This document shows positions 42,812 through 63,997 of a DNA stretch of 64,000 nt, one piece after another. Within the stretch, counting starts at the first letter, position 1. Each line of letters begins with the position of its first letter. Under the pieces are notes generated by a model that did not search any database, had not been told where the DNA came from, and was given only the letters and a program-made list of their open reading frames with translations. The position numbers and the translations under genes were made by a program. Source of the stretch: Candidatus Brocadiaceae bacterium (GTDB lineage Bacteria; Planctomycetota; Brocadiia; SM23-32); contig JAAYEJ010000011.1 of assembly GCA_012728835.1 (NCBI GenBank), forward strand, positions 50,990 through 114,989, written 5' to 3'.

Positions 42812-44074
42812 ATGACTGGCGCAGGTTCGGACAACAGGGCTGCGGCCGTCACGGGCCTGGGGGCTGTGACGGCAATCGGGAACACCCTGGACGCGATCTC
42901 CTCCTCTCTCCAGGCCGGCAGGTCCGGCATCGTCCTTGACGAGGAGCGCCGCCGCAGGGGCTTCCGGTCGGCGCTGACCGGGCGCATTGCCGACTTCGAC
43001 CCGGCCCGTTGGGGACTCTCGCGCAAGATGCTCCGCACGATGTGTGAACCCGCACAGTATGCCTGCGCGGCCACCCGGGATGCGCTGCGCGATGCCGGCC
43101 TCGCCCCGGAGGACCTGCAGAACCCGAGGTGCGGGATCGTCTTCGGCAATGACAGCACCGTCAAGCCCGTCGTCGAGTCCGTCGACATCGTGCGCGAGCA
43201 GGGCGAGACGCATTTCATCGGTGGCGGACACATCTTCCGGGGCATGAACTCCACGGTCACGATGAACCTGTCCCCGCTCCTGGGGACGCAGGGCGCGAAC
43301 TGGACCGTCAGCGCCGCCTGTGCAAGCGGGGCGCACGCGATCGGCCAGGCGCTCATGCTGATCCGGTCGGGCCTGCAGAGCATCGTGCTGGCGGGCGGCG
43401 CTCAGGAGACCAACTGGGAGTCGATGGTCAGTTTCGACGCGTTGGGCGTCTTCTCGCTGAGGCAGGACGACCCGGAGCGGGCCTCGCGGCCCTTCGATGC
43501 CGATCGGGACGGCCTCGTCCCCAGCGGCGGCGCCGCGTGCCTGGTGCTCGAGGAGCTGGAGCACGCCCGCAAGCGCGGAGCCCGGATCTACGGCCTGGTC
43601 CGGGGCTACGGTTTCGCCTCGGACGGCAGCCACCTGACCAGGCCCACCGGAGACGGCGCCTTGCGCGCCATGGAAGCGGCCCTGGCGGACGCCCGGGTCT
43701 CCCCCGAGGACATCGACTACGTCAACGCGCACGCGACGTCGACGATCACGGGCGATCGAGCCGAGGCGGGCGCGATTGCCGCCCTGTTGGGTCCGGACGT
43801 GCCTGTCTCGTCAACGAAGTCCATGACGGGGCATGAGTGCTGGATGGGCGGGGCGAGTGAAGCGCTGTACGCCTGCCTGATGGCCCGGGACGGGTTCATT
43901 GCGCCCAACCTGAACTTCGGGCGCCTGGACGGCGACTGCCCGCCGATCAACGTTGTGGCCGAGACGCTCTCGCACCGGGTGCGTTGTGTGCTCTCGAACT
44001 CGTTCGGCTTTTCAGGGACGAACGCCTCGCTCGTGCTGGACTTCGCGGGAGTCGGGTCGTGGAGGGGCCGCTGA
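42812..44074 (+). CDS. Beta-ketoacyl-ACP synthase (FabF/B-like KS; ApeR-like initiating KS).
   Basis: 420 aa. Active-site SAACASGAHAIG, His motifs NAHATST and KSMTGHECWMGG, and a C-terminal SNSFGFSGTNASLVL. Confidence 0.85.
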   Translation: MTGAGSDNRAAAVTGLGAVTAIGNTLDAISSSLQAGRSGIVLDEERRRRGFRSALTGRIADFDPARWGLSRKMLRTMCEPAQYACAATRDALRDAGLAPEDLQNPRCGIVFGNDSTVKPVVESVDIVREQGETHFIGGGHIFRGMNSTVTMNLSPLLGTQGANWTVSAACASGAHAIGQALMLIRSGLQSIVLAGGAQETNWESMVSFDALGVFSLRQDDPERASRPFDADRDGLVPSGGAACLVLEELEHARKRGARIYGLVRGYGFASDGSHLTRPTGDGALRAMEAALADARVSPEDIDYVNAHATSTITGDRAEAGAIAALLGPDVPVSSTKSMTGHECWMGGASEALYACLMARDGFIAPNLNFGRLDGDCPPINVVAETLSHRVRCVLSNSFGFSGTNASLVLDFAGVGSWRGR

Positions 44075-44195
44075 CGAGCCCGTGCATCCGAACCGGCCAC
44101 CGCGCACGTGCATCAGTGAGGTGCTCGGGCCGGGGGCGCGGGTCCTCGCGGCCACGGACAGCAGAGGCGTGGAACAGTGAAAGGTACTGGCGGCA

Positions 44196-44456
44196 ATGCC
44201 GGAACGGGACGTGGTTGAGCGCGTGAACAAGCTGCTCGTCGAAGGCTTCGAGTTGGAGGAAGGCGTGCTCGCCCCCGCCGCCCTCATCCATGAGGACCTC
44301 GGCCTCGACAGCCTCGACACCGTCGATCTGGTTGTGGCGCTCGAGCGGGAGTTCGCCTGCCGGATCAGTGAGGAGCAGGCGCGTGCCATGCGGAGCCTCG
44401 AGGACATCTACCGGCACATACGGTTGCGCGTGGGCTGTCAGGAAGGAAGGGACTGA
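44196..44456 (+). CDS. Acyl carrier protein.
   Basis: 86 aa, with the phosphopantetheine site LGLDSLDTVDLVVALEREF. Confidence 0.85.
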   Translation: MPERDVVERVNKLLVEGFELEEGVLAPAALIHEDLGLDSLDTVDLVVALEREFACRISEEQARAMRSLEDIYRHIRLRVGCQEGRD

Positions 44457-44458
44457 CC

Positions 44459-45415
44459 TTGACTCCGGGTGTCCGTGCCGAGCAGGTACCCGCCCGCCGT
44501 CGCGCTCGTTCCTGGACGGGCAGAAGGCGCGGAGGAGTCGCCGGCAACTGGGCATTCACCGCGCTCGTCCGCTCGGGGGGCCTGTGGCCGGCCTATGCGC
44601 TCCTGGCATTCGTCGCGGCGTACTTCGTGGCGTTCGCGCCCGCGGCGCGGCGGGCCTCCGCCGCATACCGTCGGCGCATCGGGTTCCGCCAGGGCTCCTG
44701 GCCGTCGCGGCTCTGGGGCGCATATTGCCACTTCTTCCGCTTCGGCCAGATACTGCTGGACCGCTATGCGTTCGCCTCGGGCCATGCGGACTGGTTCCGT
44801 TTCGAGTTCATCGGTGAGGCACACGTCCGGTCCGCCCTGGCCAGGGGCAAGGGCGTCATCCTCATCAGCGCGCACTGCGGCAACTGGGAGGCGGCCGGGC
44901 ACTTCCTGCGGGCGCTCGACGTGCCCGTCAACATCGTCGGCTACGAGGGAGAACGGGCCGACATCCGGAGCGTCTACGAGCGGGCGGGGAGCGACCGGCT
45001 CCTCAACCTGGTCAACGCGGACGGGTCTCTGGAGACGGTCGCCGTCATCACTGCGGCACTGCGCCGGGGCGAGGTGGTTGCGATGCTGGCCGACCGGCTT
45101 CTGGACGAGAGCGGCGTGGTGGTGCCGTTCCTCGGTGCGCCCGCGCGCTTCCCGGGAGGGCCGTACGTGCTCGCGGCGCTCAGCGGTGCTCCGCTCATCC
45201 ACGCCTTCGCCATGCGGGAGGGCATGCGCCGCTACCGCGTCGTGGGGTATCCTCCCGAGGAGGTGCTCGCACCCGACGAGGGAGGCTGTCGCGAGGCCGT
45301 CAGGGAGCATGCGCGCAGGTTCGTGGCGCGCCTCGAGAGCGTGCTGCGGGAGCATCCCCTTCAGTGGCACAACTTCTTTGACTTCTGGCGCGACGACGAG
45401 GAAGGAGTCGCCTGA
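44459..45415 (+). CDS. Lysophospholipid/lipid-A-type acyltransferase (LpxL/HtrB-like LPLAT; ApeD-like).
   Basis: N-terminal TM, catalytic H(X)4D motif SAHCGNWE, and a lauroyl/myristoyl acyltransferase fold. Its TGATG stop/start overlaps the next gene. Confidence 0.75.
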   Translation: MTPGVRAEQVPARRRARSWTGRRRGGVAGNWAFTALVRSGGLWPAYALLAFVAAYFVAFAPAARRASAAYRRRIGFRQGSWPSRLWGAYCHFFRFGQILLDRYAFASGHADWFRFEFIGEAHVRSALARGKGVILISAHCGNWEAAGHFLRALDVPVNIVGYEGERADIRSVYERAGSDRLLNLVNADGSLETVAVITAALRRGEVVAMLADRLLDESGVVVPFLGAPARFPGGPYVLAALSGAPLIHAFAMREGMRRYRVVGYPPEEVLAPDEGGCREAVREHARRFVARLESVLREHPLQWHNFFDFWRDDEEGVA

Positions 45416-46812
45416 TGGGAGCGAACGAGGTGAGAGCCCCGGCTGTGAAACCGATCGCCGGGACGGAGTTCTCGCCGCGCGAGATCGAGGACGCTGTGCG
45501 CAGAGGGGGCCTGCTCTCCCTGGAACTCGAGATGACGCGTGCCTGCAACCTGCGGTGCATCTACTGCTACGCGCAGGCCGGCGAGCCGATGGAGAACGAG
45601 ATCCGCTTCGAGGAACTCGTCGATGCGGTGCAGCAGGCAACCGACCTGGGCGCGCGCAAGATGGTGGTCCTGGGAGGTGGGGAGCCGTGCCTCTATCGCG
45701 AGTTCCGGCGCCTTGTCGACTACCTGGCCGACCTGGACACCGTGGTGGAGGTCTTCACGAATGGGACGCTGATCGACCGGGACCTGGCCGGCTTCCTCTA
45801 CGACCGCGGCGTCTCCGTGGTGGTGAAGCGCAACAGCGGCGATCCGCAGACGCAGGACGCGCTGGCGGGGTCCCCGGGGACCTTCGATCAGATCCGCAAC
45901 GGACTCAACCTGCTGCTGGAGGCCGGCTACCCGGACGAGAACCACGGGATGGGCGTCCAGACGGTCATATGCCGCCGGAACCTGGCCGAGATCCCCCAGT
46001 TGTGGCGATGGGCACGCCGGCGCGGGATCACGCCCTACTTCGAGTGCATGACGCTTCAGGGACGCGCTGCGCACACCGAGAGCCTCCACGTCACCACGGC
46101 GGAGGTCCGCCGGGTTTTTGCGGAGCTCTGCCGCATCGACCGGGAGGAGTTCGGCCTCGCGTGGACTCCTCACCCGCCCCTGGTGGCTCTGAGCTGTTCG
46201 CGGCACCTCTACAGCATGGTCGTCAAGGCCAACGGCGATCTGTATCCCTGCGTCGGCGTGACCATCCCCGTCGGGAACATCCGACGCGAGCGGCTTGCCG
46301 ACGTCATACGCAACAGCCCGGTCATCGATGACCTGCGGCACGTCTATGAGAGGATCAAGGGGCCCTGCCGCAACTGCCGCTACAACGGCCTCTGCTACGG
46401 CTGCCGCGGGAACGCCTACCAGTTGACGGGCGACTACCTGGCGTCCGATCCCTGCTGCTGGGTGCCGGGTGAGGCCGCCGAAGAGGCGCAGGAGGACGGA
46501 TGCGCCGAGGAGTGCTCCCGGGGGCCTGCGTCGGAACCGAACGTGCTCTGCCGGAGCCTGTGCGACTTCATGCGGACGCAGCTCGTGGCCGAGGGCGTCG
46601 TGTTCGATGAGGACACGTCGTTCGCGGCCGTCGGGCTGGACTCGCTTGGTCTCATGGAACTCCTGCTGTTCGTTGAGAGGCGGTTCGGCGTCGAGGTGCC
46701 GGAAGCGGAGCTGACGCGTGCAAACCTGCACTCCGTACGGGCATTCGCCGAGTGTGTTGGGAGACTCTCCGGACTCGGCACGGCTGCGAGCGGCGAGGCG
46801 GGAGGACCATGA
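45415..46812 (+). CDS. Radical SAM enzyme with SPASM/twitch auxiliary-cluster domain, fused to a C-terminal acyl/peptidyl carrier-protein domain.
   Basis: CNLRCIYC (CxxxCxxC), a Gly-rich SAM motif VVLGGGEP, auxiliary Cys cluster CRNCRYNGLCYGCRGNAY, and a C-terminal carrier domain AAVGLDSLGLMELLLFVERRFGVEVPEAEL with Ser in the DSL motif. Confidence 0.75.
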   Translation: MGANEVRAPAVKPIAGTEFSPREIEDAVRRGGLLSLELEMTRACNLRCIYCYAQAGEPMENEIRFEELVDAVQQATDLGARKMVVLGGGEPCLYREFRRLVDYLADLDTVVEVFTNGTLIDRDLAGFLYDRGVSVVVKRNSGDPQTQDALAGSPGTFDQIRNGLNLLLEAGYPDENHGMGVQTVICRRNLAEIPQLWRWARRRGITPYFECMTLQGRAAHTESLHVTTAEVRRVFAELCRIDREEFGLAWTPHPPLVALSCSRHLYSMVVKANGDLYPCVGVTIPVGNIRRERLADVIRNSPVIDDLRHVYERIKGPCRNCRYNGLCYGCRGNAYQLTGDYLASDPCCWVPGEAAEEAQEDGCAEECSRGPASEPNVLCRSLCDFMRTQLVAEGVVFDEDTSFAAVGLDSLGLMELLLFVERRFGVEVPEAELTRANLHSVRAFAECVGRLSGLGTAASGEAGGP

Positions 46813-48158
46813 CCGTTCAGATGTGCCAACAGCCCCTGACCGGCGGCGACTACTTCGTTCTGGCCATCGATCACGAGATGCGCCGCGCCGGGATGCACGG
46901 GAACACCTGCCGTGCATTCGTGCATCTGGACGGCAGGGCGGAGGCGGAGGGACTGCGCGCCGCCATCCGGGCCTCCGGGCTGGCCGACTGGCTGGCGGGC
47001 GCGCACGTCGGCCGGGCGGCATCCGCCGGCGAGCCCGTCTGGCAATGGTCGCCCGACGTGGGGGACGTGCCGATCGAGGAGTGCTCGGTCCCCGCGGACT
47101 GGGGCGTCGGGCCGGACCTGCCGCCCCTGGCGCCGCAGGAGGACCTCCGCCCGGACGTGCCGCCCAACGTGCGGTTCCGCCTGATGCACCGGCCGGACGG
47201 CACGAGCGTTCTCGTCCTGCTCTGGCAGCATGCACTGATGGATGCCCACGGGGCCGAACTGCTGCTGCAGCACATCAGCGCCGCCGGGGCCGGCGCATCG
47301 CCCGCAACGCGCGATGTGTTGGGTCTCGGCCACGCCGCCCGGGCGGACGGCGCGGCGGCCGGCCCGCCCACACCGGGCGCAGCGGGTGCTGCGTGGCATC
47401 ATTGCATGTCATTCGTCGGCGACGTGAGCCGCCTGCCCGTGGCCTCGGTCACGCCCTGCGCCCCGGGGGGTGCCGGCGGTCGCAACCGCTTCCGGCGAAT
47501 CCGGTTCGACAGGGCGGAGTCGGACGCCATCCGGGCGAGGATCGAGGGTACAGGCGCGACGGTTGCCCGGAGCGTGTTCTGCATGGCCGTCTGCATGCGT
47601 GCACTCCAGGGCGTGCTTGCGGAGCGGTCGGTCGAGCCGGCCGCGTTCCTGGTGCCCGTGCCTCACGAGCGGCGGAAGGCAGGGGCGGCCGGGCCCATCT
47701 GCTCGAACCGCATCTCCTTCCTGTTCTACCGCGCCGAGCCGGCGGACATGGTGTCGCTGGAGGGCCTGATCGCGTCGCTCGTGAGACAGATGAGAAGCCA
47801 GGTGCGCGCCGGCATCCCGGCCTCGTTCGAGCAGGCGATGGAGGTGTTCCGCCGCGTGCCGCTCGGCGCCTACTCCCGCGTCGTGCACGGCCCCTCAGCC
47901 GGCCAGGTGGCCAGCTTCTTCTTCTCGGACACCGGGGACAGCTTCCGGGACGCCCCGAGGTTCCTCGGCGCCCGCATTCGGGACGTCCTTCACGTGCCGC
48001 CCGTCCCGTTCCCACCGGGCGTCGCGATCGTCGCCGGCCAGTTCGGCGATCGGTTGAGCATCGTGCTCTCATGGGTCGAGGGCTGCCTCGATTCCGGCGA
48101 GGTCGACATGCTGGAGCGGGCCATCCGTTCGCAGATGCTGGGCGGAGGGGCCTCATGA
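46809..48158 (+). CDS. Condensation-domain-like / WS-DGAT-like CoA-dependent acyltransferase superfamily protein.
   Basis: ATG 46809 follows GGAGG and overlaps the upstream stop (ATGA). It has an HHxxxDG-like motif WQHALMDAHG and is 449 aa. Confidence 0.55.
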   Translation: MTVQMCQQPLTGGDYFVLAIDHEMRRAGMHGNTCRAFVHLDGRAEAEGLRAAIRASGLADWLAGAHVGRAASAGEPVWQWSPDVGDVPIEECSVPADWGVGPDLPPLAPQEDLRPDVPPNVRFRLMHRPDGTSVLVLLWQHALMDAHGAELLLQHISAAGAGASPATRDVLGLGHAARADGAAAGPPTPGAAGAAWHHCMSFVGDVSRLPVASVTPCAPGGAGGRNRFRRIRFDRAESDAIRARIEGTGATVARSVFCMAVCMRALQGVLAERSVEPAAFLVPVPHERRKAGAAGPICSNRISFLFYRAEPADMVSLEGLIASLVRQMRSQVRAGIPASFEQAMEVFRRVPLGAYSRVVHGPSAGQVASFFFSDTGDSFRDAPRFLGARIRDVLHVPPVPFPPGVAIVAGQFGDRLSIVLSWVEGCLDSGEVDMLERAIRSQMLGGGAS

Positions 48159-49546
48159 GGTTCCTCATGGTCTCGGGCAACCAGGAGCAGCTTCCGTTCC
48201 CCGTCGCCCCGCTCGGGGCGCTCTGTGTCGCGGGATCGCTCCAGGAAGCGGGCCATTCGGTCGATCTGGTCGACCTCTGCTTCGCCCGCTCGCCCTGCGA
48301 GGACCTGCGGACCGTCCTCCAGGAGGGCGGGTATGACGCCGTGGGCCTGAGCATCCGGAACCTGGACAACTGCCTCTACGGCAACCCGGTGTCCTATTTC
48401 GACCAGTTCCGCCGATTGGCCGAGACGGTCAGGGCCGCCGCCGACGTGCCGCTGATCCTCGGAGGCAGCGGGTTCTCCGCCGCCAGCCGCGGGTGGATCG
48501 AGCGCCTGGACGCCTTCTGCGGCATCATCGGCGAAGGAGAGCGGGCCCTCCCGCAGGTTCTGGAGGCCCTCGACCGGGGCGAGGAGCCCGATGCCGTGCC
48601 GAACGTCATCCGGCGCGGGCAGACGCGGCCGCCCACCCCGGTGCTCGACATCGACCTGGACTGCATCCCGCTGCCGGCCCACGAGCACTGCGACTACGAG
48701 CAGTACCTGTCGCGCGGCGGCTTCGTCGGCGTGCAGGCAAAGCGCGGCTGCCCCTTCCATTGTATCTATTGCACCTACCCCTTGCTGGAGGGGTGCTCCT
48801 ACCGGGTCCGCCACCCCGAGCGCGTCGTGGACGAGATCGCCACGGTGCACCAGTCCACCGGGGCGGGCTACTACTTCTTCACCGACAGCGTCTTCAACGC
48901 GCCGCGCGACCATGCTCTGGCCATCTGCCGCGAGATAGCCCGGCGGGGGCTGCGGGTTCAGTGGATGAGCTACTGCAACCCCGTCGGCTTCGACAGGGAA
49001 CTGGCGCACGCCATGGCGGAGGCGGGCTGCATCGGCGTGGAGTTCGGCCTCGACGCGGTCACCGACAAGATGCTGCTCGCCATGGGCAAGCCGTTCGGCC
49101 TGGACGAGATTCGCGTCAGCCTGGAGGCGGCGGCGCACGCGCGCATTCCCTTCGCCGTGCACCTGCTCTTCGGCGGGCCCGGTGAGGACGTTGCGGATGT
49201 CGAGGACGCCCAGGAGTTCCTGGACTCCTGCGCGGCGCCGGACGCCGTGTTCGCCTCCGTCGGCATCCGCCTCTACGCGGACACCCCGGCCGAGAGGATC
49301 GCGCGTGAACTGGGAGCGCTCGCCGCGGACGCGGATCTGTTCGAGCCGGTCTACTTCGTGTCCGAGGGACTCGGCAAGGACCCGGTGGGCGTTCTGGACG
49401 GCATCGCCCGTCGCCGGCCGGCCTGGTCCACCCAGGCGGACTGGCAGCGCCCCGTCCTGCAGGTCGCTCAGCGTCTGGCCAACCGCAACGGCGAACGCCC
49501 CCAGTGGCGTCACATCCGGGACTACGGGGAGTACCTGCGATGGTGA
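48155..49546 (+). CDS. B12-binding radical SAM enzyme (class B; methylase or C-C bond forming), copy 1.
   Basis: It has an N-terminal cobalamin-binding Rossmann-like domain, a radical-SAM CPFHCIYCTYP motif, and an ATGA overlap with the upstream gene. It is 463 aa. Confidence 0.75.
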   Translation: MRFLMVSGNQEQLPFPVAPLGALCVAGSLQEAGHSVDLVDLCFARSPCEDLRTVLQEGGYDAVGLSIRNLDNCLYGNPVSYFDQFRRLAETVRAAADVPLILGGSGFSAASRGWIERLDAFCGIIGEGERALPQVLEALDRGEEPDAVPNVIRRGQTRPPTPVLDIDLDCIPLPAHEHCDYEQYLSRGGFVGVQAKRGCPFHCIYCTYPLLEGCSYRVRHPERVVDEIATVHQSTGAGYYFFTDSVFNAPRDHALAICREIARRGLRVQWMSYCNPVGFDRELAHAMAEAGCIGVEFGLDAVTDKMLLAMGKPFGLDEIRVSLEAAAHARIPFAVHLLFGGPGEDVADVEDAQEFLDSCAAPDAVFASVGIRLYADTPAERIARELGALAADADLFEPVYFVSEGLGKDPVGVLDGIARRRPAWSTQADWQRPVLQVAQRLANRNGERPQWRHIRDYGEYLRW

Positions 49547-49661: not shown

Positions 49662-51101
49662 ATGAGCACCTATCAACTGCTGCGGCACTCGGCGGAGGCG
49701 TGGGGACGACGGCCGGCCGTGATCGACCGGCACGGGCGGATTGACTACCACACGCTCTTCGCGCAGGTCGAGGACGTCCGCCGGCAGCTCCGGGGCCTGG
49801 GGGTCGGGCCCGGGCACGGCGTGGGGATCATGGCACCGAACGGACGCTCCTTCATCATCGGCGCCTTCGCCGCGACGGGGTGCGGCGCCACGATGCTGCC
49901 GATGTCGCCGACGCTTCGGCAGACGGAGCTTGACGGATTCCTTCGCGACGTGCGGGTGCACGCGATTCTGGGCCAGGGGCTTGCCTTCCGGCCTGAGGAC
50001 GGCCGGTCGTCCCAGGTAGACGTGCCGGGCGTCGGGCCGATGCCGTTCACGTGGACGGACGCGCCGCGCAACAGGCCGTGCGTGGAGTTCGTGCCGGACG
50101 CGGCCTTCGTCCGCCTGACCTCCGGCACCACGGGGCGGGCGAAGGGCGTGGTGCTCTCCCACCGGAGTGTGATCGAGCGAACGGCCGCCGCCAACCGCGC
50201 GCTGGGTCTGTCGTGCGAGGACACGGTGGTCTGGGTCCTCCCGATGGCATTCCATTTCTTCGTCTCGATCGTGCTGTACCTGCGCGTCGGGGCGGCCATC
50301 GTCGTGTGTGCCGACCACCTTGCCGAGACCGTCCTGGAGGACGCCAACCGCCACGGGGGGACGTTCCTGTACGCGGCGCCCGTCCATTACCGCCTGCTGG
50401 TCGCCGAGGCGTCCGGCGCACGGTTCCGGACGGTGCGCAGGGCGCTGTCGACGGCGGTGGGCCTGCCTCTGGAGGTGGCCCACGGGTTCCGCGAGCGGTT
50501 CGGGTTCCCCCTTGCCCAGGCGTACGGGGTGATCGAGGTGGGGCTGCCGCTGGTGAACCTGGAGCGGCCCGAGGAGAGGCCGGGCTCCGTGGGGCGTCCG
50601 CTGCCGGACTGGGAGGTGGCCATCGTCGGCCTGGACGCAGCGCCCCTGCCCCCCGGGGAGGTGGGGCAGTTGGCGCTGCGTGGGCCGGGCCTGTTCGAGG
50701 GCTACCTGAGCCCCCCGACCAGGAGGGTCGACGTCCTGCACGACGGGTGGTTCATGACGGGCGACATGGCCTGGCGGGATGAGGAGGGCTTTGTTACGAT
50801 AGCGGGCCGCTGCAAGTCCATGATCAACGTTGGCGGCAACAAGGTCTTCCCGGAAGAAGTGGAGCATGTGCTGGGCATGCACCCCGCCGTCCGGGCATGC
50901 CGCGTACGGGCCGAGCCGCACCAACGGCTCGACGAGGTCGTCCATGCCGACGTGGTCCTTGCGGATCCGTGCCGACCCGTGGACGCCGAGGAACTCGTCG
51001 CCTTCTGCCGCCGCCGCCTGTCGAGTTTCAAGGTGCCCGGCTCGATCACCTTCGTCCCGGCGATCACGGAGACCGCCAGCGGCAAGCCCTTTCGTTACTG
51101 A
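49662..51101 (+). CDS. Acyl-AMP ligase / AMP-dependent synthetase (ApeH-like adenylating enzyme).
   Basis: ATG 49662 follows GGAGG. It has the adenylation motifs LTSGTTGRAKGV (A3), YGVIEVG (A5) and TGDMAWRDEEGFVTIAGRCKSMINVGGNKV (A7-A8). It is 479 aa. Confidence 0.8.
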   Translation: MSTYQLLRHSAEAWGRRPAVIDRHGRIDYHTLFAQVEDVRRQLRGLGVGPGHGVGIMAPNGRSFIIGAFAATGCGATMLPMSPTLRQTELDGFLRDVRVHAILGQGLAFRPEDGRSSQVDVPGVGPMPFTWTDAPRNRPCVEFVPDAAFVRLTSGTTGRAKGVVLSHRSVIERTAAANRALGLSCEDTVVWVLPMAFHFFVSIVLYLRVGAAIVVCADHLAETVLEDANRHGGTFLYAAPVHYRLLVAEASGARFRTVRRALSTAVGLPLEVAHGFRERFGFPLAQAYGVIEVGLPLVNLERPEERPGSVGRPLPDWEVAIVGLDAAPLPPGEVGQLALRGPGLFEGYLSPPTRRVDVLHDGWFMTGDMAWRDEEGFVTIAGRCKSMINVGGNKVFPEEVEHVLGMHPAVRACRVRAEPHQRLDEVVHADVVLADPCRPVDAEELVAFCRRRLSSFKVPGSITFVPAITETASGKPFRY

Positions 51102-55064: not shown

Positions 55065-55068
55065 AGCA

Positions 55069-55342
55069 GATGCCAGATATCGTCGAGGATCTCAAGGAGC
55101 AGGTCATCAAGGCGTTGAACCTGCGGGACGTGACGCCGGAAGACATCGACCCCGACGCGCCGCTGTTCGGCGAGGGACTGGAACTCGACTCCATCGACGC
55201 GCTCGAGATCGTCGTCATGCTCGAGAAGCGCTACGGCATACGCGTCGAGGACATGGACGTCGCCCGTCAGGCGTTCCGTTCCGTGAACGCCCTGGCGGAG
55301 TTCGTCACGGAGAACAGGGAGTCGTGCGAACAGACCGAGTAG
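55069..55342 (+). CDS. Acyl carrier protein (second ACP).
   Basis: 91 aa, with LELDSIDALEIVVMLEKRYG. Confidence 0.8.
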
Positions 55343-56526: not shown

Positions 56527-57672
56527 ATGACGTCGCCGGGGCCGGGCAGGCACGCGGGTGTGAGCATCTGCGGCATGGGGCTCGTGCTGCCGGGCCCGAC
56601 GCCGGGCATGCTGCCGTCCGTGCCGTCGCCCCGGCTGGCCGCGGGGCCCGTGTACTCCTGCCGCGAACTGCCGGCCCTGCCGCCCCGGTACGCCAGAGCG
56701 CTGCGACGGCTGTGCCGTGCGGACCACCTGGCCCTGGCCGCAGCCGTGCAGGCTGTCGGGGACCGTGGCGGTCAGGAAGGCCCGGACGACGAGACCGCCG
56801 TGTGCGTGGGGACGGGGATGGGCGTTGTGGGCGCGACGGCGGCCTTCCTGGAGAGCATGGTCGAGGAGAACGAGGGCAACCCCAAGCCGACGGCCTTCAC
56901 CAACTCCCTCCACAACGTCCCGGCCGCTCAGATCGCCGTCTACCTCGGGCTGCGCGGCCCGAACAACACCTTCATCCACGGGTCCGTCTCCTTCGAACTC
57001 GCACTGTGGCGGGCGCTGCGGATGATGGAGACCGGGCAGGCCCGGCGGGCCGTCGTCGTCGGCGTTGACGAGGCCAGCCCCTACGTCGTCACCGCCGGGC
57101 AGCGCCGGGGCTGGTTCCGCGGCGACGGCGCCTCGCTGGATCCCATGGCGGGGTCGGCGGCGCGTGTGCGCGGGACGGTGCCGGGGGAAGGCGCCGGCGC
57201 CCTGCTGCTCTGCCGCGAGTCCGATGCCCCGCAGGGCCGCCGTGAGGCACGCCTGGCCGGGCTCCGGATCGAGCCGCCGGCCGATCCGCGCATCGCCGTG
57301 CGCGACCCGGACGCCGAGGCGGAGTTCGTGGTCGACGCCCTCGAATCAGCCGGGGTCGCGATGGAGGATGTCGATCTGCTCCTGCTGGGCGCGAACGGCG
57401 ATTGCCGGATCGACGACGCCCACCGCCGCGTGGTCGGTGCTCTTGCACGGTCCGGCCGCGTGTCGTGCGGCGTGTTCAAGTCCTCCTGCGGCGAGTTCTG
57501 TGCCGCCGCAGCGGTGGGCGTCGTGCTCGGCGCCATGGCCGTGCGGGACGGGGCACTGGCGCCCGCGATCCGGCTCCTGGGGCGGCCCGTCCGGGCCCGT
57601 GCCGTCTCCTGCGTGGCATGCTATAACCTGTATGAGACGGGCTACCGCAGCCTCTGCGTGGTGAAGGCATGA
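56527..57672 (+). CDS. KS-like protein without catalytic Cys (chain-length-factor-like partner).
   Basis: 381 aa. It has a KS fold, but the active-site region reads AFTNSLHNVPAAQIAV (no Cys). It directly follows the KS with no gap. Confidence 0.65.
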   Translation: MTSPGPGRHAGVSICGMGLVLPGPTPGMLPSVPSPRLAAGPVYSCRELPALPPRYARALRRLCRADHLALAAAVQAVGDRGGQEGPDDETAVCVGTGMGVVGATAAFLESMVEENEGNPKPTAFTNSLHNVPAAQIAVYLGLRGPNNTFIHGSVSFELALWRALRMMETGQARRAVVVGVDEASPYVVTAGQRRGWFRGDGASLDPMAGSAARVRGTVPGEGAGALLLCRESDAPQGRREARLAGLRIEPPADPRIAVRDPDAEAEFVVDALESAGVAMEDVDLLLLGANGDCRIDDAHRRVVGALARSGRVSCGVFKSSCGEFCAAAAVGVVLGAMAVRDGALAPAIRLLGRPVRARAVSCVACYNLYETGYRSLCVVKA

Positions 57673-58451
57673 ATCGCTTCGGAGTCGCAACGCTTGCCGT
57701 CCTGGCCTGCTGGGCCGGCGTCGTCCTGGCTCTGGACGGGGCCGCGCGCTGGTGGGTCGGCGGCGCCCTGACGGTGGCGTACCTCGTCGCACTCGGCGTC
57801 GGCGTGGCCTTCCCCCGGGCCGGGTTCTTCTGCCGGGCCTTCTGCCGCGGGGATGCGGCGCGCCGGCAGGTGGCGTTCACGTTCGACGACGGTCCGGATC
57901 CGGCCGCGACCCCCGCGCTGCTGGACCTGCTGAGGGAGCAGCGCGTGCCCGCCGCCTTCTTCTGCATCGGGCAGAAGGCGCAGGAGCACCCCGACGTGGT
58001 CCGGCGCGCGGTGAGGGAGGGGCACGTGGTCGGCAACCACACGTTCCGGCACAGCCCGTGGACGAACTTCCTGTCCGCGCATGGCCTGCTGCGCGAGATC
58101 GGGCGTGCCCAGGACGCCCTGGGGCTGGTCGTCGGCCGCCGGCCCCGCTATCTGCGCAGTCCGGTGGGGCTGACGAACCCCCGCTTCCCCGGGGCGCTCT
58201 GCCGATCCGGGACGACCTTCATCGGTTGGGACGTGCGGTCGCTGGACCGGGGCGCCGCGCCCGACGCCGTGGTGGCGCGGGTGTGCAGGAAGGCGCGCCC
58301 CGGCAGCGTCTTGCTGATGCACGACGGCGGCGCGGACGCCGAGGCGCTGGTCGAGGCCGTGTCCCGGATCATCGCGCAGCTCAGGGACCGGGGCTATGCA
58401 TTCGTCGCCCTGGAGGACATGGGCGCCGGCCCGCCCTACGTGGACGGATGA
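57669..58451 (+). CDS. NodB-type polysaccharide deacetylase family protein (membrane-anchored).
   Basis: N-terminal TM, then motifs FTFDDGP, VGNHTFRHS, and RSPVG ... LLMHDG. Confidence 0.75.
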   Translation: MNRFGVATLAVLACWAGVVLALDGAARWWVGGALTVAYLVALGVGVAFPRAGFFCRAFCRGDAARRQVAFTFDDGPDPAATPALLDLLREQRVPAAFFCIGQKAQEHPDVVRRAVREGHVVGNHTFRHSPWTNFLSAHGLLREIGRAQDALGLVVGRRPRYLRSPVGLTNPRFPGALCRSGTTFIGWDVRSLDRGAAPDAVVARVCRKARPGSVLLMHDGGADAEALVEAVSRIIAQLRDRGYAFVALEDMGAGPPYVDG

Positions 58452-58488: not shown

Positions 58489-59295
58489 ATGCACGCAGAT
58501 CATCGGAGACGGCTGCCCGCAGTCCTCGGCCTTCTGTTCGCGGCCGTGTTCGCCGTGTCTGCGCCGCTCGGGCATGCGGCAGATGCGGAAGGGATGGTCG
58601 GGGCGGCGCCGCGTTCGCTCAGCGGCGAGGAGGTGGCGGAGCTGCTCAAGAGACTGGAGACCAGGCTTCAGAGCACGTCGTCTCTGAGGGCGGACTTCAT
58701 CCAGGAGAAGCACATGAGCATCTTCACGGACGTCCTGACGGCGCGCGGGACGCTGCTGTTCGAACGCCCGAACGCCGTGCGGTTCGAGATGATCGAACCG
58801 TTCCGCTCGGTGCTCGTCGCCAGGGGGAGGGCCGTCGCGAAGTACGAGTGCGTGGAGGGCCGCTGGGAGAAACTGGACCCCGCCGCCGCATCGGCCATGA
58901 AGGCGGTGACGGACCAGATGATCCTGTGGCACGGGGGATCGCTCCAGGAGCAGAAGGGCGCCTACGACATCGGCGCCGTCCGGGCCGAACACACCACGAT
59001 CGTGCTGACGCCGCGCGACCGGGAGGTGCGCGAGTACATCGGCGCCGTGGAACTCACGCTGGACGAAGAGGAGAGCTACTTCCAATGCGTGACGATCCGC
59101 GAGAGCGGAGGCGATTACACGTGCATGCGCTTCGCGCGGCCGGCGCGCAACCTCAGCATCCCCAAGGCGGTGTTCGACCCGGCGCTTGACGAGCCGGTCC
59201 GGCTCGAAGACGTCATGCCGTCTCCCCCGACCGCGCCGGACCCGCAGCCCCCGCCGGCGCCGCGAGCCGATCAGGGCGCGGCGCCCGACTCCTGA
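58489..59295 (+). CDS. LolA-like outer-membrane lipoprotein carrier family protein (ApeL/ApeN-like), with a Pro-rich C-terminal tail.
   Basis: ATG 58489 (GGGAGA). It has a signal peptide LPAVLGLLFAAVFAVSAPLGHA and a LolA-like beta-barrel region (FIQEKHMSIFTDVLTARGTLLFERPNAVRFEM). Confidence 0.6.
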   Translation: MHADHRRRLPAVLGLLFAAVFAVSAPLGHAADAEGMVGAAPRSLSGEEVAELLKRLETRLQSTSSLRADFIQEKHMSIFTDVLTARGTLLFERPNAVRFEMIEPFRSVLVARGRAVAKYECVEGRWEKLDPAAASAMKAVTDQMILWHGGSLQEQKGAYDIGAVRAEHTTIVLTPRDREVREYIGAVELTLDEEESYFQCVTIRESGGDYTCMRFARPARNLSIPKAVFDPALDEPVRLEDVMPSPPTAPDPQPPPAPRADQGAAPDS

Positions 59296-60056: not shown

Positions 60057-60059
60057 GGT

Positions 60060-60794
60060 TCAGTAGATGCCCCCGTTCACGCCGATCACCTGGCCGGTGA
60101 TGTACGCCGCCTCGTCCGAGCACAGGAAGACGACCAGCGACGCCACCTCCTCAGCCGTTCCGAGGCGGCCCACCGGCACCTTGTCGGCCACGGCCTCCTT
60201 GTCCAGGCCCTCCAGCATCTCGGTGTCGATGTAGCCGGGCGCGACGGCGTTCACGGTCACGTGCCGTCTGGCCACCTCCTTGGCCAGCGCCTGCGTGGCG
60301 CCGATGAGGCCGGCCTTCGACGCCGCGTAGGCGACCTGCCCCGGCAGGCCGGACTGCCCCGAGGTGCTGGAGATGCTGACGATCCGGCCGGACCGCCTGA
60401 GGACCATCTCCTTGACCACGGGCTGCGTCACGTTGAAGAACCCGGTCAGGTTCACGTCCAGCAGGCGCTGCCATTCGTCGTGCTTCATCCACACCATCAG
60501 CATGTCGCTGCGGATGCCGGCGTTGTTCACCAGTATGTCGATGCGGGCATGGCATTCGATGACGCCCTGCACGGCCCGGTTGGCCGCCTCGCTGTCCGCG
60601 ACGTCGAACGGCAGCAGCTCGCCGGTGCCGCCGGCGGCCTCGACCTGCTGCAGGGCCTCCTCGGCCGAGTCCCGGCGGGTGCGGTAGTTGATGAGCACGT
60701 GCCTGCCGGTTCGGGCGAGGGCCACGGCAATGGCACGCCCGATCCCGCGGCCGGCTCCCGTCACCAGTGCGACCTGTCGCTGCGCGTCACCCAT
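60060..60794 (-). CDS. fabG: 3-oxoacyl-ACP reductase (SDR; FabG/ApeQ-like).
   Basis: TGAGRGIGRAIA NAD(P)-binding motif, NNAG, and catalytic S...YAASKAG. It is 244 aa. Confidence 0.85.
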   Translation of the reverse strand: MGDAQRQVALVTGAGRGIGRAIAVALARTGRHVLINYRTRRDSAEEALQQVEAAGGTGELLPFDVADSEAANRAVQGVIECHARIDILVNNAGIRSDMLMVWMKHDEWQRLLDVNLTGFFNVTQPVVKEMVLRRSGRIVSISSTSGQSGLPGQVAYAASKAGLIGATQALAKEVARRHVTVNAVAPGYIDTEMLEGLDKEAVADKVPVGRLGTAEEVASLVVFLCSDEAAYITGQVIGVNGGIY

Positions 60795-60901: not shown

Positions 60902-62587
60902 TCAACGCCTCCCGGCGGCCCGGGCGAGCAGGGCCCGGAGCCTCTCCCTCTCCGTCCCGAACGCAGGACACAGCTCCTGCGCCGTGCGGAGGTGCTCGCG
61001 CGCCTCGTCCCATTCACCGCAGTCGAGCGCGATCTGCCCGAGTCCCAGGTGGGGGGCATACCACACCGGGTTCAGATCGACGGCCCTGCGGAGGCGCCGC
61101 CGGGCCTCTTCGCTGTCGCCGTCATCCACGAGGTCCGCGGCCTGCATGAGGAGCGTCTTCGCCTCGCGGGCACGTTCCAGAGAGCCATCGGTCAGCATGG
61201 GGTCGGCGCCGATGGCCTCGGCGTCGGCCGGCTGCCCGAAGGAATCCAGACCGAACGGGACATAGGCGCCGAGCTGATGGGGGCCGGCCGACACCCAGAT
61301 CACGCCGGCCGTGGCGTCCACAACGACCGAGTGCGTCGTCGCCAGCGAGTTGACCGCCGCCGGATGTCCCAGCGACGGGGCCGGCATCCCCTTCACCGCT
61401 CGGTCGCGCAGGAGGCCCGCCACGTCCGCCGGCGTGAGCGGTTCCCGCCGGCTCGACAGAAGCTCCGTGATGCGGTCGTAGCGGGTCAGGGTGGTCCCTT
61501 CGGCCATGTAGTCCGTGTTGGCCGAGTCGTCCTTGAGTCGGTCCGTCACGAAGTGGTTCGACGACACGAGGAAGCACCCTTCGGGCTGCAGGACCGAGCA
61601 CCGGGACGGCGTCTTCTCCACGATGACGGCTCTGCCCGTCTTGCCGTCTGCCAGCAGGTAGCAGTCGGAGACGAAGACCGTGCTGCCCTCGATGATCCGG
61701 ACGCCCTCCTGGATTGTCGACGCGTGCTGCATGACCTCGCGCATGACGAGGCTGACGGGCGTTCCGATCCGACGCGTGTCCGTGGAGCGGGCGGCGTTGA
61801 TGCTGATGAACAGGTGCGCGTCATTCAGCCCCGTGACGACGCCGATCAGACCCGGCCAGGCGACCGACACGTAGCCGAAGCCCTCGTCGGGGACAACGCG
61901 CGCCACGCTCTTCCTCTCGTCGAATCCCGGCCCGGCGTCGAAGTCGAAGTTCCGGCCGATCAGGAGATGGCCGTCCCGCGTTGCCTCGCCCCATGCGGCA
62001 AAGGAAGTGCATCCGACCATCGGCAGGCCCATGACGGCGTGCGCGATGTCATGCGCGGCATGGTAGTTGAGCACGCGGTGGTAGAGGTGGCCGATCTCGG
62101 GGAACGGGTCCTCCGACCCCATCGTGAGGCCCAGCATCTCCATCTGGAAGCGCGGGGCCACGTGATCGGGCAGGTCCCGGTTGCGGATCAGGACGTACTT
62201 CCTCAGCAGCCACAGGCCGATGCGCGAGGGGACGTGCTCCTTGATCGTCTCCAGCAACTCCGCTTCCTGCTCCTTCAGGATGTCCCGTGTCAGCGACGCG
62301 TGGCAGTACCCGAGCGTGAACGGATCGCCGGCCAGGTACATGTGCATGATGCCGTCGCGCTTCGCCAGCCGGGCCGGACCGATCCGGAGCACGCCGTCGG
62401 CCTCGTGGACCTGCTGCCGGAGGATGGGGGGCGAGCCTTCCAGCGCGGGTGGGCGGGCGAAGCAGACCCAGTCCACAGCCCTCGACGCGAGGCAGACCAG
62501 CAGAACGAGCGTGGCCAGGACGATGCCCGCTCGGCGAAGCCTGCGCTTCCACCTGGAGCGCGGTCTGCTCCCGTCTGCACCTGCCAT
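60902..62587 (-). CDS. Peptidase C45 / acyl-CoA:6-APA acyltransferase-like Ntn-hydrolase with C-terminal TPR repeats.
   Basis: Met 29 start with an N-terminal TM anchor. The autoproteolytic nucleophile context is MVGCTSFAAWG, and the C-terminus has TPR-like helices. Coordinates follow the ORF track. Confidence 0.6.
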   Translation of the reverse strand: MAGADGSRPRSRWKRRLRRAGIVLATLVLLVCLASRAVDWVCFARPPALEGSPPILRQQVHEADGVLRIGPARLAKRDGIMHMYLAGDPFTLGYCHASLTRDILKEQEAELLETIKEHVPSRIGLWLLRKYVLIRNRDLPDHVAPRFQMEMLGLTMGSEDPFPEIGHLYHRVLNYHAAHDIAHAVMGLPMVGCTSFAAWGEATRDGHLLIGRNFDFDAGPGFDERKSVARVVPDEGFGYVSVAWPGLIGVVTGLNDAHLFISINAARSTDTRRIGTPVSLVMREVMQHASTIQEGVRIIEGSTVFVSDCYLLADGKTGRAVIVEKTPSRCSVLQPEGCFLVSSNHFVTDRLKDDSANTDYMAEGTTLTRYDRITELLSSRREPLTPADVAGLLRDRAVKGMPAPSLGHPAAVNSLATTHSVVVDATAGVIWVSAGPHQLGAYVPFGLDSFGQPADAEAIGADPMLTDGSLERAREAKTLLMQAADLVDDGDSEEARRRLRRAVDLNPVWYAPHLGLGQIALDCGEWDEAREHLRTAQELCPAFGTERERLRALLARAAGRR

Positions 62588-62734
62588 CACTCGTGCGGCC
62601 CCTTCAGGGAGCTGGGCGCCTGCCCCTGTGAGACAGGCCGCCATTATCGGAGAAGGGCCGACCCCCGTCAACGCCGTGCGACATCCGGCAGAGCGTCTCG
62701 TGCGGCGCGTCCTTCGAGAGCGACCCCGCCGCGA

Positions 62735-63997
62735 CTACGTCGCATGGCGTGGAGTCCTCTTCACGAAGACCGTGGTCCCATCCGAGCCGTTGCCGACGGC
62801 CGGCTGCTCCTCCCAGGGCATCAGCCCTGCGTCCGCGAACGCCTGCACGCAGGAATTGCGTGCGCAACGACGGTCACGCGTGTGCCCGTTCCGGCCGCCC
62901 GCGAGTGCGCACAGCCATCGCGTCAACGCCGCCAGGGGGTGCCTCAGGAAACGCGGCCCGTCCAGGTCGCGGAACACGACCCGGCCGTTGTCCCGCAAGG
63001 CGGCCGCAGCCCTGGCGATCACGCGGCGCCGGTCCTCCGGCGGGCGGCCGCGAAGCGCGTCCACCAGGAGGACGACGTCGGACTCGGGAAGCGGGCATTC
63101 CAGGGGATCGGCGTGGCAGAACCGCACGCTCTGCGACGGGGACACCGTGCTCGCCGCCACCGCGATCTTGCGTTCGTCGGCGTCAATGGCAGCGATCCGG
63201 CGGCGCGGCGACCTGCGCGCCAGTATGTTCGACAGCAGGCCGTATCCGCAGCCGATGTCGAGAACGGCGGCGTCCCCGGGGACCATGTCGTCGATGCACC
63301 GGCACAGGGGATCGAACCGAAGCCTCCACGCGACGTGCCTCTCCGCGCACGCTCCGCGATAGCGGTAGAGGGCGCGCACGTTCCGCCGGAACGCCGGACC
63401 GGCCTGGGAGAGCCGCCGGTCCTCGTCCTGCTGAGCGAGGAGCCTTCCTTTGACCTCCCGCCCGAGGGCCCGGGCGCCCCCGGCGTAGTCGAACGTCTGG
63501 GGCGTGACTCGCGGCAGGACCCGGACGATGCAGTGGTGGTCGCCGATCCAGGCGGCATTGCGCGCCAGGCAGGATCGCGTGTCGGTGAGCAGCACGGGGA
63601 TGACGTCGCTGCCCGTGCGACACGCCAGCTCGAACGCCCCCTTGTGGAACCGCTGCATGCGGCCGTCCGACGAACGCGTTCCCTCGGGAAAGACGACCAC
63701 GCAGACGCCCCGGGACAGCGCGTTCGCGGCGTCTCGGAGGAAGCTCTCCGGCTCGCCGGGCGCGGGGCAGACATAGCCCGCGCTGCGGACGAGACGCCCC
63801 ATCAGCGGGGCGTTCCAGACCCACGGCTTGACCACCATGACCATCTCGGTGGGCAACGCCAGCAGCATCATGATGTCCGAGCCCGAGTTGTGGTTGCTGA
63901 CCAGGACCCCGGGCTTGCGGAGCGCCTCGGCATCCGCGTCGACGTACACTCGCCTGCTGCCGAGGTACGGCAGGAACCGCACAACGGTCGCGGCCAT
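62735..63997 (-). CDS. Fusion of 1-acyl-glycerol-3-phosphate-type acyltransferase (PlsC/LPLAT) and class I SAM-dependent methyltransferase. It may be 5'-truncated by the window edge.
   Basis: N-terminal half: H(X)4D VSNHNSGSDI and FPEGTRS. C-terminal half: SAM-binding VLDIGCGYGLLS. The ORF reaches the window end at 63997. Confidence 0.65.
   Translation of the reverse strand: MAATVVRFLPYLGSRRVYVDADAEALRKPGVLVSNHNSGSDIMMLLALPTEMVMVVKPWVWNAPLMGRLVRSAGYVCPAPGEPESFLRDAANALSRGVCVVVFPEGTRSSDGRMQRFHKGAFELACRTGSDVIPVLLTDTRSCLARNAAWIGDHHCIVRVLPRVTPQTFDYAGGARALGREVKGRLLAQQDEDRRLSQAGPAFRRNVRALYRYRGACAERHVAWRLRFDPLCRCIDDMVPGDAAVLDIGCGYGLLSNILARRSPRRRIAAIDADERKIAVAASTVSPSQSVRFCHADPLECPLPESDVVLLVDALRGRPPEDRRRVIARAAAALRDNGRVVFRDLDGPRFLRHPLAALTRWLCALAGGRNGHTRDRRCARNSCVQAFADAGLMPWEEQPAVGNGSDGTTVFVKRTPRHAT

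Follow-up and report, generated by a model that had tools for sequence, protein, structure and literature searches.

The 64,000-nt window analysed here, deposited as part of a contig from 'Candidatus Brocadiaceae bacterium', carries at positions 42812-64000 a biosynthetic cluster of 20 close-packed genes, in which type II ketosynthase machinery is combined with three radical S-adenosylmethionine (rSAM) enzymes (Table 1). The plus strand carries sixteen of them (42812-59295) and the minus strand the other four (59271-64000), and the two sets converge at ~59,280, forming two convergent operons. Because the GC content is ~70% throughout the window, raw lists of open reading frames (ORFs; here 132 of them) are useless. 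The coding frame was chosen by GC content at the third codon position (GC3), which stays between 0.84 and 0.94 along 42812-64000, in a single frame throughout. For the thioesterase (52641) and the second acyl carrier protein (ACP2, 55070), starts were taken from the gene call of L001, a 97-kb contig that carries the same DNA (window coordinate = 70795 minus L001 coordinate). Neighbouring genes mostly overlap by 1-19 nt or lie 0-5 nt apart, and five gaps are larger (37-121 nt). Domains were called by Pfam and NCBIfam profile searches of the cluster proteins. An earlier, sequence-only reading of this DNA had described a tightly packed lipid-type cluster with three rSAM enzymes; GC3, gene junctions and profile searches all agree with that description, and nearly every domain call was confirmed.

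Table 1. Genes of the cluster, in window coordinates unless stated otherwise (KS, ketosynthase; SAM, S-adenosylmethionine)
Feature	Position	Strand	Features of the product
KS1, FabB/FabF-like ketosynthase	42812..44074	+	First gene of plus operon; Cys-His-His intact
ACP1	44196..44456	+	PP-binding; GLDS serine
LpxL/PIM-acyltransferase-type lipid acyltransferase	44459..45415	+	PF03279 4.8e-23
rSAM/SPASM enzyme with C-terminal carrier	45415..46812	+	Radical_SAM, SPASM and PP-binding domains
Condensation-superfamily protein, 449 aa, stand-alone	46809..48158	+	Motif QHALMDAHG; fold match
B12-binding rSAM enzyme A	48155..49546	+	TIGR04072 327.8 bits (cut-off 360)
FadD-type acyl-AMP/CoA ligase	49662..51101	+	AMP-binding 2.3e-62; L086 orthologue 56% identical
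B12-binding rSAM enzyme B, HpnR/TokK-like	51171..52595	+	HpnR model is best NCBIfam match
Hot-dog thioesterase, 4HBT/YbgC-type	52641..53096	+	4HBT, 4HBT_2; TIGR00051 74 bits, above cut-off 68.7
KS2, catalytic ketosynthase	53089..54270	+	Intact Cys-His-His triad
Truncated Cys-less KS-like protein, 265 aa	54267..55064	+	Weak ketoacyl-synt match
ACP2	55070..55342	+	PP-binding 3e-12; PRK09184 82 bits, above cut-off 70
KS3, catalytic ketosynthase	55324..56526	+	Intact Cys-His-His triad
Cys-less KS-like protein	56527..57672	+	Cys to Ser, second His to Glu; L088 orthologue 41% identical
NodB-type polysaccharide deacetylase	57669..58451	+	PF01522 9.4e-31; two N-terminal membrane helices
LolA-like periplasmic lipid carrier	58489..59295	+	PF03548 7.8e-14; signal peptide
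Putative lipoprotein, 257 aa	59271..60044	-	Last gene of minus operon; lipobox-like AAQGC
FabG-type ketoreductase, ApeQ/FlxB-like	60060..60794	-	FabG NF004200 292 bits, above cut-off 273
C45 autoproteolytic acyltransferase/hydrolase with C-terminal TPR	60902..62587	-	NF040521 199 bits, above cut-off 85
Final gene in window	62735..64000, start beyond window	-	In full (L001), 1294-aa MMPL/RND + PlsC acyltransferase + methyltransferase
GT2+DUF2062 protein	Beyond window, upstream of 1294-aa gene, same operon		GT2 and DUF2062 domains
PaaK/FlxY-type ligase	L001 1685-3004, beyond window		FlxY model 461 bits, cut-off 520
113-aa secreted protein	Beyond window, same operon		Signal peptide

The right border of the cluster at the end of the window is an artefact. 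On L001 the cluster continues ~5.5 kb past the edge and ends at ~69,500 in window-equivalent coordinates, where an opposite-strand peptidase marks its limit; its total span is ~27 kb. The last ORF of the window corresponds to the C-terminal 420 aa (PlsC acyltransferase plus SAM methyltransferase) of a 1294-aa fusion, the N-terminal part of which is an MMPL/RND protein (HAE3/HpnN-like), polytopic with ~13 hydrophobic segments. The same MMPL-acyltransferase-methyltransferase fusion occurs in relatives at 1281-1286 aa. What had been called an acyltransferase-methyltransferase fusion therefore has both of the named domains and makes up only the C-terminal third of the protein, and the MMPL exporter that had been thought missing lies just beyond the window.

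Chain building would fall to three catalytic ketosynthases. KS1 matches both halves of the ketoacyl-synt family in Pfam (N-terminal, 1.7e-38; C-terminal, 2.4e-29) and scores 373 bits with the KAS I model; its orthologues, 66-67% identical, open the clusters of two related loci, L086 and L088. KS2 has a 56% identical orthologue in L088. For KS3, the best PDB match is chain B of 9s5h (247 bits), an entry with two different KS-like chains, B and C. This entry, considered together with 9s5i, may be the anammox FabF2/FabFmut heterodimer, for which the preprint gives no PDB code; when the methyltransferase domain and the chain-length-factor (CLF)-like protein were searched against PDB sequences, no anammox-named entry stood out. 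KS2 and KS3 each overlap or abut a KS-like gene. The 265-aa protein behind KS2 has no active-site Cys and is missing its C-terminal half, and the L088 orthologue, 44% identical, occupies the same position. From their degenerate active sites, this protein and the Cys-to-Ser protein encoded at 56527 look like CLF-like partners of KS2 and KS3, respectively. Carrier domains are found in ACP1 and ACP2, both free proteins, and at the C-terminus of the protein encoded at 45415; all three have the DS(L/I) serine, and ACP1 has orthologues at the equivalent position in L086 and L088. Inspection of these active sites and serines upholds the earlier count of three ketosynthases, two Cys-less partners and three carriers.

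Two further chain-related proteins resemble those of aryl-polyene and flexirubin pathways. The hot-dog thioesterase has a 64% identical orthologue in L088, and the FabG-type reductase scores narrowly under the cut-off of the flexirubin model FlxB_rubin_SDR. In fact, all of the flexirubin equivalog models are missed, with 321 bits against a cut-off of 340 for FlxB, 461 against 520 for FlxY and 85 against 125 for LolA2_flexi. An aryl-polyene/flexirubin-like core, as first proposed, is nonetheless borne out, in that the FabG, the ligase and the LolA come just short of these three cut-offs. Dehydratases and a desaturase are missing. No cluster protein, in the window or its extension on L001, matches the ApeI-like or ApeP-like families (PF22817, PF22818) or FabA/FabZ, and tblastn with the ApeP-like and ApeI-like proteins of L088 against the window plus the 6.8-kb L001 extension gave a best E value of 0.63. 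A corresponding search of the same DNA with a relative's dehydratase and phytoene-desaturase-like proteins yielded no desaturase homologue (best E 0.35). The lack of a FabZ/FabA-type dehydratase noted earlier thus extends through the additional 6.8 kb. The cluster also contains no starter-forming enzyme of the tyrosine ammonia-lyase (TAL) or chorismate lyase type.

All three rSAM proteins contain the CxxxCxxC motif, and the overlaps of the rSAM genes with adjoining genes are 1-4 nt long. In the SPASM enzyme the motif lies at residue 44, and the C-terminal region is Cys-rich. This enzyme falls under the cut-off of every curated rSAM family; among solved structures, SkfB, PqqE and MoaA come nearest. 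The two B12-binding enzymes differ from each other. Enzyme A is closest to TsrM (its best PDB match), AprD4 and BzaD. With TIGR04072 ('lipid biosynthesis B12-binding/radical SAM protein'), the L085 and L086 orthologues of this enzyme, 50-53% identical to it, reach 339 and 344 bits, likewise under the cut-off of 360, and on these profile scores enzyme A is best described as a sister paralogue of that family. Enzyme B scores 223 bits with the HpnR model TIGR04367, for which the cut-off is 650, and 70.5 bits with TIGR04072 (360); its sole PDB match is TokK. L005 and L012 encode relatives of enzyme B, 32-34% identical, beside their SPASM genes, and L008 has one close by. Judging from this homology, enzyme B is probably a cobalamin-dependent C-methyltransferase. 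HpnR and the TokK/TsrM class have the same architecture of B12-binding plus radical-SAM domains as enzymes A and B, but the scores of the cluster enzymes are far under the family cut-offs, and there are no hopanoid genes nearby. A housekeeping role of the HemN/MiaB type was considered for the rSAM proteins and rejected, the best MiaB/RimO scores being ~20 bits; on this point the sequence-only reading withstood the check it had proposed.

Most remaining genes of the cluster have predicted envelope functions. The LpxL-type acyltransferase gene has orthologues (47-53% identical) immediately upstream of the SPASM gene in L086 and L088. The NodB-type deacetylase is kept in L088 (49% identical) and on a further contig, P0017. 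LolA is the only one of the presumed LolA-like carriers for which the assignment holds; its 257-aa neighbour is a putative lipoprotein whose likeness to LolA was not confirmed. The 257-aa protein has no Pfam or NCBIfam match and a 35% identical homologue in L088, and its single-sequence AlphaFold model is unusable (pLDDT 41). The C45 protein has AAT and TPR domains and one N-terminal anchor, with a basic stretch in front of it; it was not found by tblastn in 21 related loci and so is lineage-specific. Topology predictions place LolA, the 113-aa protein, the 257-aa protein, the C45 enzyme and the MMPL protein in the envelope. Lip_A_acyltrans, Polysacc_deac_1 and Glycos_transf_2 domains could also suggest a locus for remodelling lipid A/lipopolysaccharide or a cell-wall glycan, with the LpxL-type acyltransferase, NodB and GT2 as its working parts. 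We regard this as extremely unlikely: LpxL and NodB equivalog scores are all far under the cut-offs, five KS-like genes, three carriers and three rSAM enzymes have no role in known lipid A pathways, and the same accessory set belongs to flexirubin clusters. Indeed, the published flexirubin set comprises a deacetylase, an acyltransferase, LolA, a glycosyltransferase and an exporter, along with FlxY, a proven 4-coumarate-CoA ligase. NodB, initially taken for an addition to the canonical genes, is accordingly part of that set, and it is retained in the cluster family described below, including Kuenenia (kuste3351).

To what extent is this arrangement conserved? The SPASM enzyme, the best-conserved marker of this cluster family, has more than 765 homologues, the best 120 of which (including the query) are 48-71% identical. 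Orthologues 46-70% identical lie in syntenic clusters of anaerobes from at least seven phyla. Among species-representative genomes we found at least 17 orthologous loci, with SPASM proteins 46-56% identical. Labels among the matches listed include Thermodesulfobacteriota, Desulfonatronovibrio, the cultured Desulfurivibrio dismutans, Pseudodesulfovibrio, Desulfoprunum, Methylomirabilis, Verrucomicrobiota, Sumerlaeota, Thermodesulfovibrionia and Omnitrophota; neither Kuenenia nor the source genome is among the matches listed. By tblastn with the window proteins, a PaaK-type ligase is directly upstream in 14 of the 17 loci listed, and at least one B12-rSAM gene is present in 14 of 17. In two of the three loci without one, the contig ends within ~1.2 kb of the SPASM gene; in the third, L016, ~7 kb of sequence follows that gene. 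Within 10 kb, the longer loci carry KS, ACP, acyltransferase, LolA, MMPL, thioesterase, GT2/DUF2062, LpxL and FabG genes.

The closest comparison is with L088 (62% GC), which has 17 genes in common with this cluster, at 32-66% identity and in nearly the same order, and P0017 has the same layout as L088. In these two the order is GT2/DUF2062, MMPL-acyltransferase-methyltransferase, phytoene-desaturase-like oxidase, KS, FabG, KS (L088 only), ACP, LpxL, SPASM rSAM, B12-rSAM, ApeP-like dehydratase, thioesterase (L088 only), KS, short KS-like, ACP, KS, KS-like and NodB. In L088 these are followed by LolA, a protein of no known family and an ApeI-like dehydratase, none of which is present on the P0017 contig. 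In L086, L088 and P0017, as here, the SPASM gene sits with the LpxL, ACP and KS genes on one side and the other core genes on the other. The B12-rSAM enzymes encoded right after it in L088 and L086 are true TIGR04072 members (447 and 422 bits; cut-off 360), a level that neither B12-rSAM of the present cluster reaches (327.8 and 70.5 bits). Enzyme B occupies the slot that the ApeP-like dehydratase holds in L088. Just upstream of the L086 cluster (989-4118, minus strand) lie genes for a BcrAD/BadFG-type activator and two HGD-D/DUF2229 (2-hydroxyacyl-CoA-dehydratase-like) proteins; from their domains, these would be a radical dehydratase system beside a cluster that otherwise uses hot-dog dehydratases.

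This co-conservation of rSAM genes and type II machinery across phyla (the loci above, L088 and P0017) bears out the expectation that gene linkage would be maintained, and it identifies the locus as a member of a known, uncharacterized family. The pairing itself is not new: Rattray et al. (2009) described extended FASII/rSAM clusters in Kuenenia stuttgartiensis (kuste3335-3352), syntenic in Desulfotalea (psychrophila), Geobacter and Pelobacter. The kuste3335-3352 genes encode a glycosyltransferase, phytoene desaturase, methylase, FabZ, ACP, FabG, two SAM-radical enzymes, a phenylacetyl-CoA ligase, FabFs including a non-canonical one, a further ACP and a deacetylase-like protein (kuste3351). 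The antiSMASH class 'ladderane' is derived from that study, and clusters so labelled are routinely reported, with function unassigned, from Desulfobacterota, Myxococcota, Verrucomicrobiota, Omnitrophota and other phyla. We linked the present locus to the Kuenenia cluster and the antiSMASH class through the published gene lists and the TIGR04072 membership of the relatives' enzymes. Features in common are the glycosyltransferase, MMPL-type protein, methyltransferase, ACPs, FabG, deacetylase-like gene, two adjacent rSAM genes, phenylacetyl-CoA-type ligase and several FabF paralogues, including non-catalytic ones. On this evidence the cluster is likely to be a derived member of the widespread family that antiSMASH calls 'ladderane-type', related to aryl-polyene/flexirubin clusters.

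The differences from other members are substantial. Compared with the 'ladderane-type' family, this copy is without the phytoene-desaturase-like oxidase, FabZ/ApeI/ApeP and a TIGR04072-level B12-rSAM, and it adds a cassette (carrier, condensation-like protein, B12-rSAM enzyme A and FadD-type ligase), the HpnR-like rSAM enzyme and the C45-TPR protein, in two convergent operons. We read the absences as losses of this variant, and the cassette with its carrier fusion, the HpnR-like rSAM and the C45 acyltransferase as gains. Aryl-polyene/flexirubin clusters have in common with it the KS/CLF-like pairs, ACPs, FabG-type ketoreductase, putative aryl-acid ligase and thioesterase, together with an anchoring and export set of LPLAT, GT2/DUF2062, deacetylase, LolA and MMPL, whereas ApeI/ApeP, TAL and chorismate lyase are absent here and three rSAM enzymes and the condensation-like protein are added. 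These shared KS/CLF pairs and accessory genes, with LPLATs, NodB and the near-threshold FlxB, FlxY and LolA2_flexi matches, are what an ordinary aryl-polyene/flexirubin pigment cluster with uninvolved rSAM neighbours would show. Such a cluster is very improbable, given that the ApeI/ApeP dehydratase needed for a polyene is absent, that the rSAM genes overlap adjoining genes and stay together with the core in many phyla, and that one of them is fused to a carrier domain.

Could the locus be a genuine ladderane-lipid pathway of an anammox-related planctomycete? The SPASM and CarB proteins (P0001, P0127) are identical to entries labelled 'MAG: Candidatus Brocadiaceae bacterium' (MAG, metagenome-assembled genome), and the nearest named relatives of CarB among the best 120 matches, 75-81% identical, are from Planctomycetota, Candidatus Brocadiia and Phycisphaerae MAGs. 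The deposited label and the grouping of CarB with Planctomycetota/Brocadiia MAGs favour such a pathway, as do a gene architecture that fits one cluster once proposed for ladderane synthesis and the two-chain KS entry 9s5h as best solved relative of KS3. Yet the same family occurs in many non-anammox phyla, and Desulfotalea carries it but makes no ladderanes. Cluster I, now regarded as anammox-specific, is not here either. That cluster (kuste3603-3608), reported to be unique to ladderane producers, comprises amxACP, amxFabZ, amxFabF2/amxFabFmut, a phytoene-desaturase-like enzyme and a B12-rSAM. Like it, the present locus pairs a catalytic KS with an inactive KS as chain-length factor and includes B12-rSAM genes; unlike it, the locus extends much further and encodes export and anchoring proteins but no amxFabZ-type dehydratase and no desaturase. 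With no FabZ, no desaturase, no true TIGR04072 member and no named anammox genus among the best 120 CarB matches, ladderane synthesis is very unlikely here. A GC content of 70% is also far from that of the cultured anammox genera. With such a value, and with CarB relatives from generic MAGs in place of named anammox genera, the family-level Brocadiaceae label looks doubtful. The high GC and the lack of genes of the Cluster I type speak against an anammox host, and the deposited label urges caution; the statement that the organism is clearly not an anammox bacterium is, given that label and the CarB relatives, unproven.

Among the gains of this copy is the cassette whose carrier is fused to the SPASM enzyme. 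Its 449-aa protein (46809) had been called a condensation-domain acyltransferase. It has no Pfam or NCBIfam match even at E<1, and PF00668 itself gives no hit, in which it differs from nonribosomal peptide synthetase (NRPS) condensation (C) domains. Still, the call is right at the level of the fold. A profile of the protein matches an NRPS C region in the PDB (E 4.7e-4), and the AlphaFold model (pTM 0.81) matches AzeD, NRPS C domains and PapA5 in Foldseek with E values of 8e-20 to 1e-16. TM-scores against C domains and PapA5 are ~0.6, and sequence identity to solved C domains is 12-18%. The (H/Q)HxxxD motif is conserved in the family: it reads WHHxxxDxxG in five homologues, and QHALMDAHG of the present protein keeps the second, catalytic His. 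By this model the protein belongs to the condensation-domain superfamily, with its two-lobed chloramphenicol-acetyltransferase-like fold. The top structural match, AzeD, is annotated as a dehydratase, and the dehydrating condensation domain of AmbE was matched too, so that a carrier-dependent dehydration role may be conceivable for the modelled protein. A word-indexed search had indicated that the family is very rare (6 clusters); this was overturned by exhaustive HMMER searches, which count 1175 representative clusters (E<=1e-3, 50% identity), 447 of them at E<=1e-30.

In the loci examined, the condensation-like protein is always encoded beside or fused to a carrier, usually with an FAD oxidoreductase and a FadD-type ligase next; in P0254, P0353 and P0357 the carrier is fused at its N-terminus. 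The cassette found here (carrier, condensation-like protein, B12-rSAM, ligase) is conserved in L086, and L085 has the ACP, the condensation-like protein and enzyme A. In L086 the SPASM gene is followed by a true TIGR04072 enzyme, free ACP, condensation-like protein, enzyme A, FAD oxidoreductase, FadD ligase and a truncated gene with the FabZ/ApeP-type motif LPHRPPMVLID; the order in L089 is SPASM, B12-rSAM, ferredoxin, ACP and condensation-like protein. The series carrier/condensation-like/FAD oxidoreductase/AMP ligase also recurs outside KS-containing clusters, in L090 and L091, where an AMP-binding ligase of 478-480 aa holds the same position (a Pfam domain match only). In L090 this cassette adjoins a gene of the tyrosine/histidine-ammonia-lyase type (aromatic ammonia-lyase) and an O-methyltransferase gene; in L091 it adjoins genes for a patatin and a halogenase-like flavoprotein.

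The SPASM-fused carrier resembles the free ACPs of L085 and L086: identity is 36-38%, and all three have the signature LLFVER..GV.VPE..LTR.NL. Given this likeness to cassette ACPs, the fusion joins the family-core enzyme to the cassette's carrier. The carrier domain is absent from all 119 other SPASM homologues among the best 120 listed, and the fusion argues for a carrier-tethered SPASM substrate. An alternative is that two pathways are interleaved here, one a ladderane-type lipid core and the other a self-contained cassette that makes or tailors another molecule with its own B12-rSAM enzyme. Consistent with that, the L091 cassette is without KS or SPASM genes, that of L090 has its own lyase-type and O-methyltransferase neighbours, and no cassette is found in L088 or the at least 17 orthologous loci. 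Two independent pathways are nevertheless unlikely, because the cassette carrier is fused here to the core SPASM enzyme, cassette genes overlap core genes, and in L086 and L089 the cassette holds the same site within the core cluster. In composition the cassette resembles the mycobacterial FadD/PapA5 system and NRPS starter modules, which likewise bring together an AMP ligase, a carrier and a stand-alone HxxxD condensation-fold protein, PapA5 and C domains being the structural matches described above. It differs from them in placing a B12-rSAM enzyme (in relatives, an FAD oxidoreductase) between transferase and ligase, and a function can be proposed for it by analogy. On that analogy, the carrier/condensation-like/(FAD oxidoreductase or B12-rSAM)/FadD cassette may be a new, widespread acyl-transfer module.

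Under the reading that we favour, that of a derived 'ladderane-type' cluster, these genes suggest the following pathway. The PaaK/FlxY-like ligase would activate a starter, probably an aromatic or similar acid since FlxY has that activity on 4-coumarate. Extension of the carrier-bound starter would fall to the two KS/CLF-like pairs together with KS1, FabG and the two ACPs, and the hot-dog thioesterase would edit or release the chain; this step is inferred by analogy with the aryl-polyene, ishigamide and anammox FabF2/FabFmut systems. The SPASM and B12-rSAM enzymes would act on unactivated carbons in the tethered chain, methylation being the likeliest reaction for enzyme B. Acting as a dissociated NRPS-like or FadD/PapA5-like unit, the cassette would have its FadD ligase load another acid on the SPASM-fused carrier, where a radical or redox enzyme could alter it before the condensation-like protein passes it to a hydroxyl or amine, joining it to the product. 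The LpxL-type and PlsC-type acyltransferases, GT2/DUF2062, NodB and the methyltransferase domain would build a lipid or glycolipid anchor, and the MMPL domain, LolA, lipoprotein and periplasmic C45 enzyme would bring the product to the outer membrane and remodel it there. As dehydratase and desaturase are both absent, the predicted chain has fewer double bonds than that of relatives, unless a housekeeping FabZ is recruited.

Several points weigh against this reconstruction. No product has been assigned to any family member in the literature, nor did we find there a characterized product of aryl-polyene-like clusters with rSAM genes, and Kuenenia genes expressed in E. coli gave no new fatty acid. 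Lacking TAL, chorismate lyase, ApeI and ApeP, the locus is a doubtful source of a polyene. Enzyme A, FabG, LolA and the PaaK-type ligase all fall just under NCBIfam equivalog cut-offs, and the link to the Kuenenia proteins is inferred from gene lists and TIGR04072. The cassette, which also occurs outside such clusters (L091), could work independently. Substrates named for all three rSAM enzymes are guesses.

The product of the family has been an open question since 2009; its clusters were first held responsible for ladderane synthesis, and the antiSMASH label persists in non-anammox genomes. According to a 2026 review, ladderanes and jawsamycin are the only fatty-acyl lipids thought to be rSAM-modified, and ladderane synthesis is still unsolved. 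An undescribed lipid class, the earlier suggestion for this locus, is a possible product. Against this background we tentatively propose, as a possibility somewhat short of probable, that the whole family, including the dehydratase-less variant, makes an undescribed class of outer-membrane lipid in anaerobes, the acyl chain of which is altered by rSAM enzymes while carrier-bound, and that the cassette is a new acyl-transfer module wired to the SPASM enzyme by fusion. The variant amounts to a natural experiment, in which dehydratases, desaturase and canonical B12 enzyme were lost and the SPASM enzyme was kept and fused to a carrier. By itself the locus reveals no new kind of system. Its use is for comparison, and the by-product of greatest interest is the uncharacterized family of carrier/condensation-like/ligase cassettes.

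Genes outside the cluster were noted in passing. Immediately upstream, an MFS transporter, an alpha/beta hydrolase and a SASA esterase were considered as cluster members and rejected, as they are not common to L086 and L088. The longest high-GC3 ORFs for the alpha/beta hydrolase (39928-41184, minus strand) and the MFS transporter (41127-42356, plus strand) lie on opposite strands and share 58 nt at their 5' ends, and the true starts of both genes are probably internal. A NiFe hydrogenase large subunit (11201-12628) and a NuoF-like FMN/NAD-binding subunit (13909-15558) are encoded close together on the minus strand, which suggests a soluble NAD-linked (Hox-type) hydrogenase. Tandem overlapping secretin genes, for outer-membrane channels of the type II/III secretion type, lie at 23874-25448 and 25445-26914 (both minus strand), and a flotillin/SPFH-domain protein of 477 aa is encoded at 7832-9265 (minus strand). 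At the left end of the window (4-7350), three large proteins (826, 699 and 894 aa) contain Ig-like, fibronectin-III and carboxypeptidase-regulatory-like repeats and are probably surface or secreted proteins.

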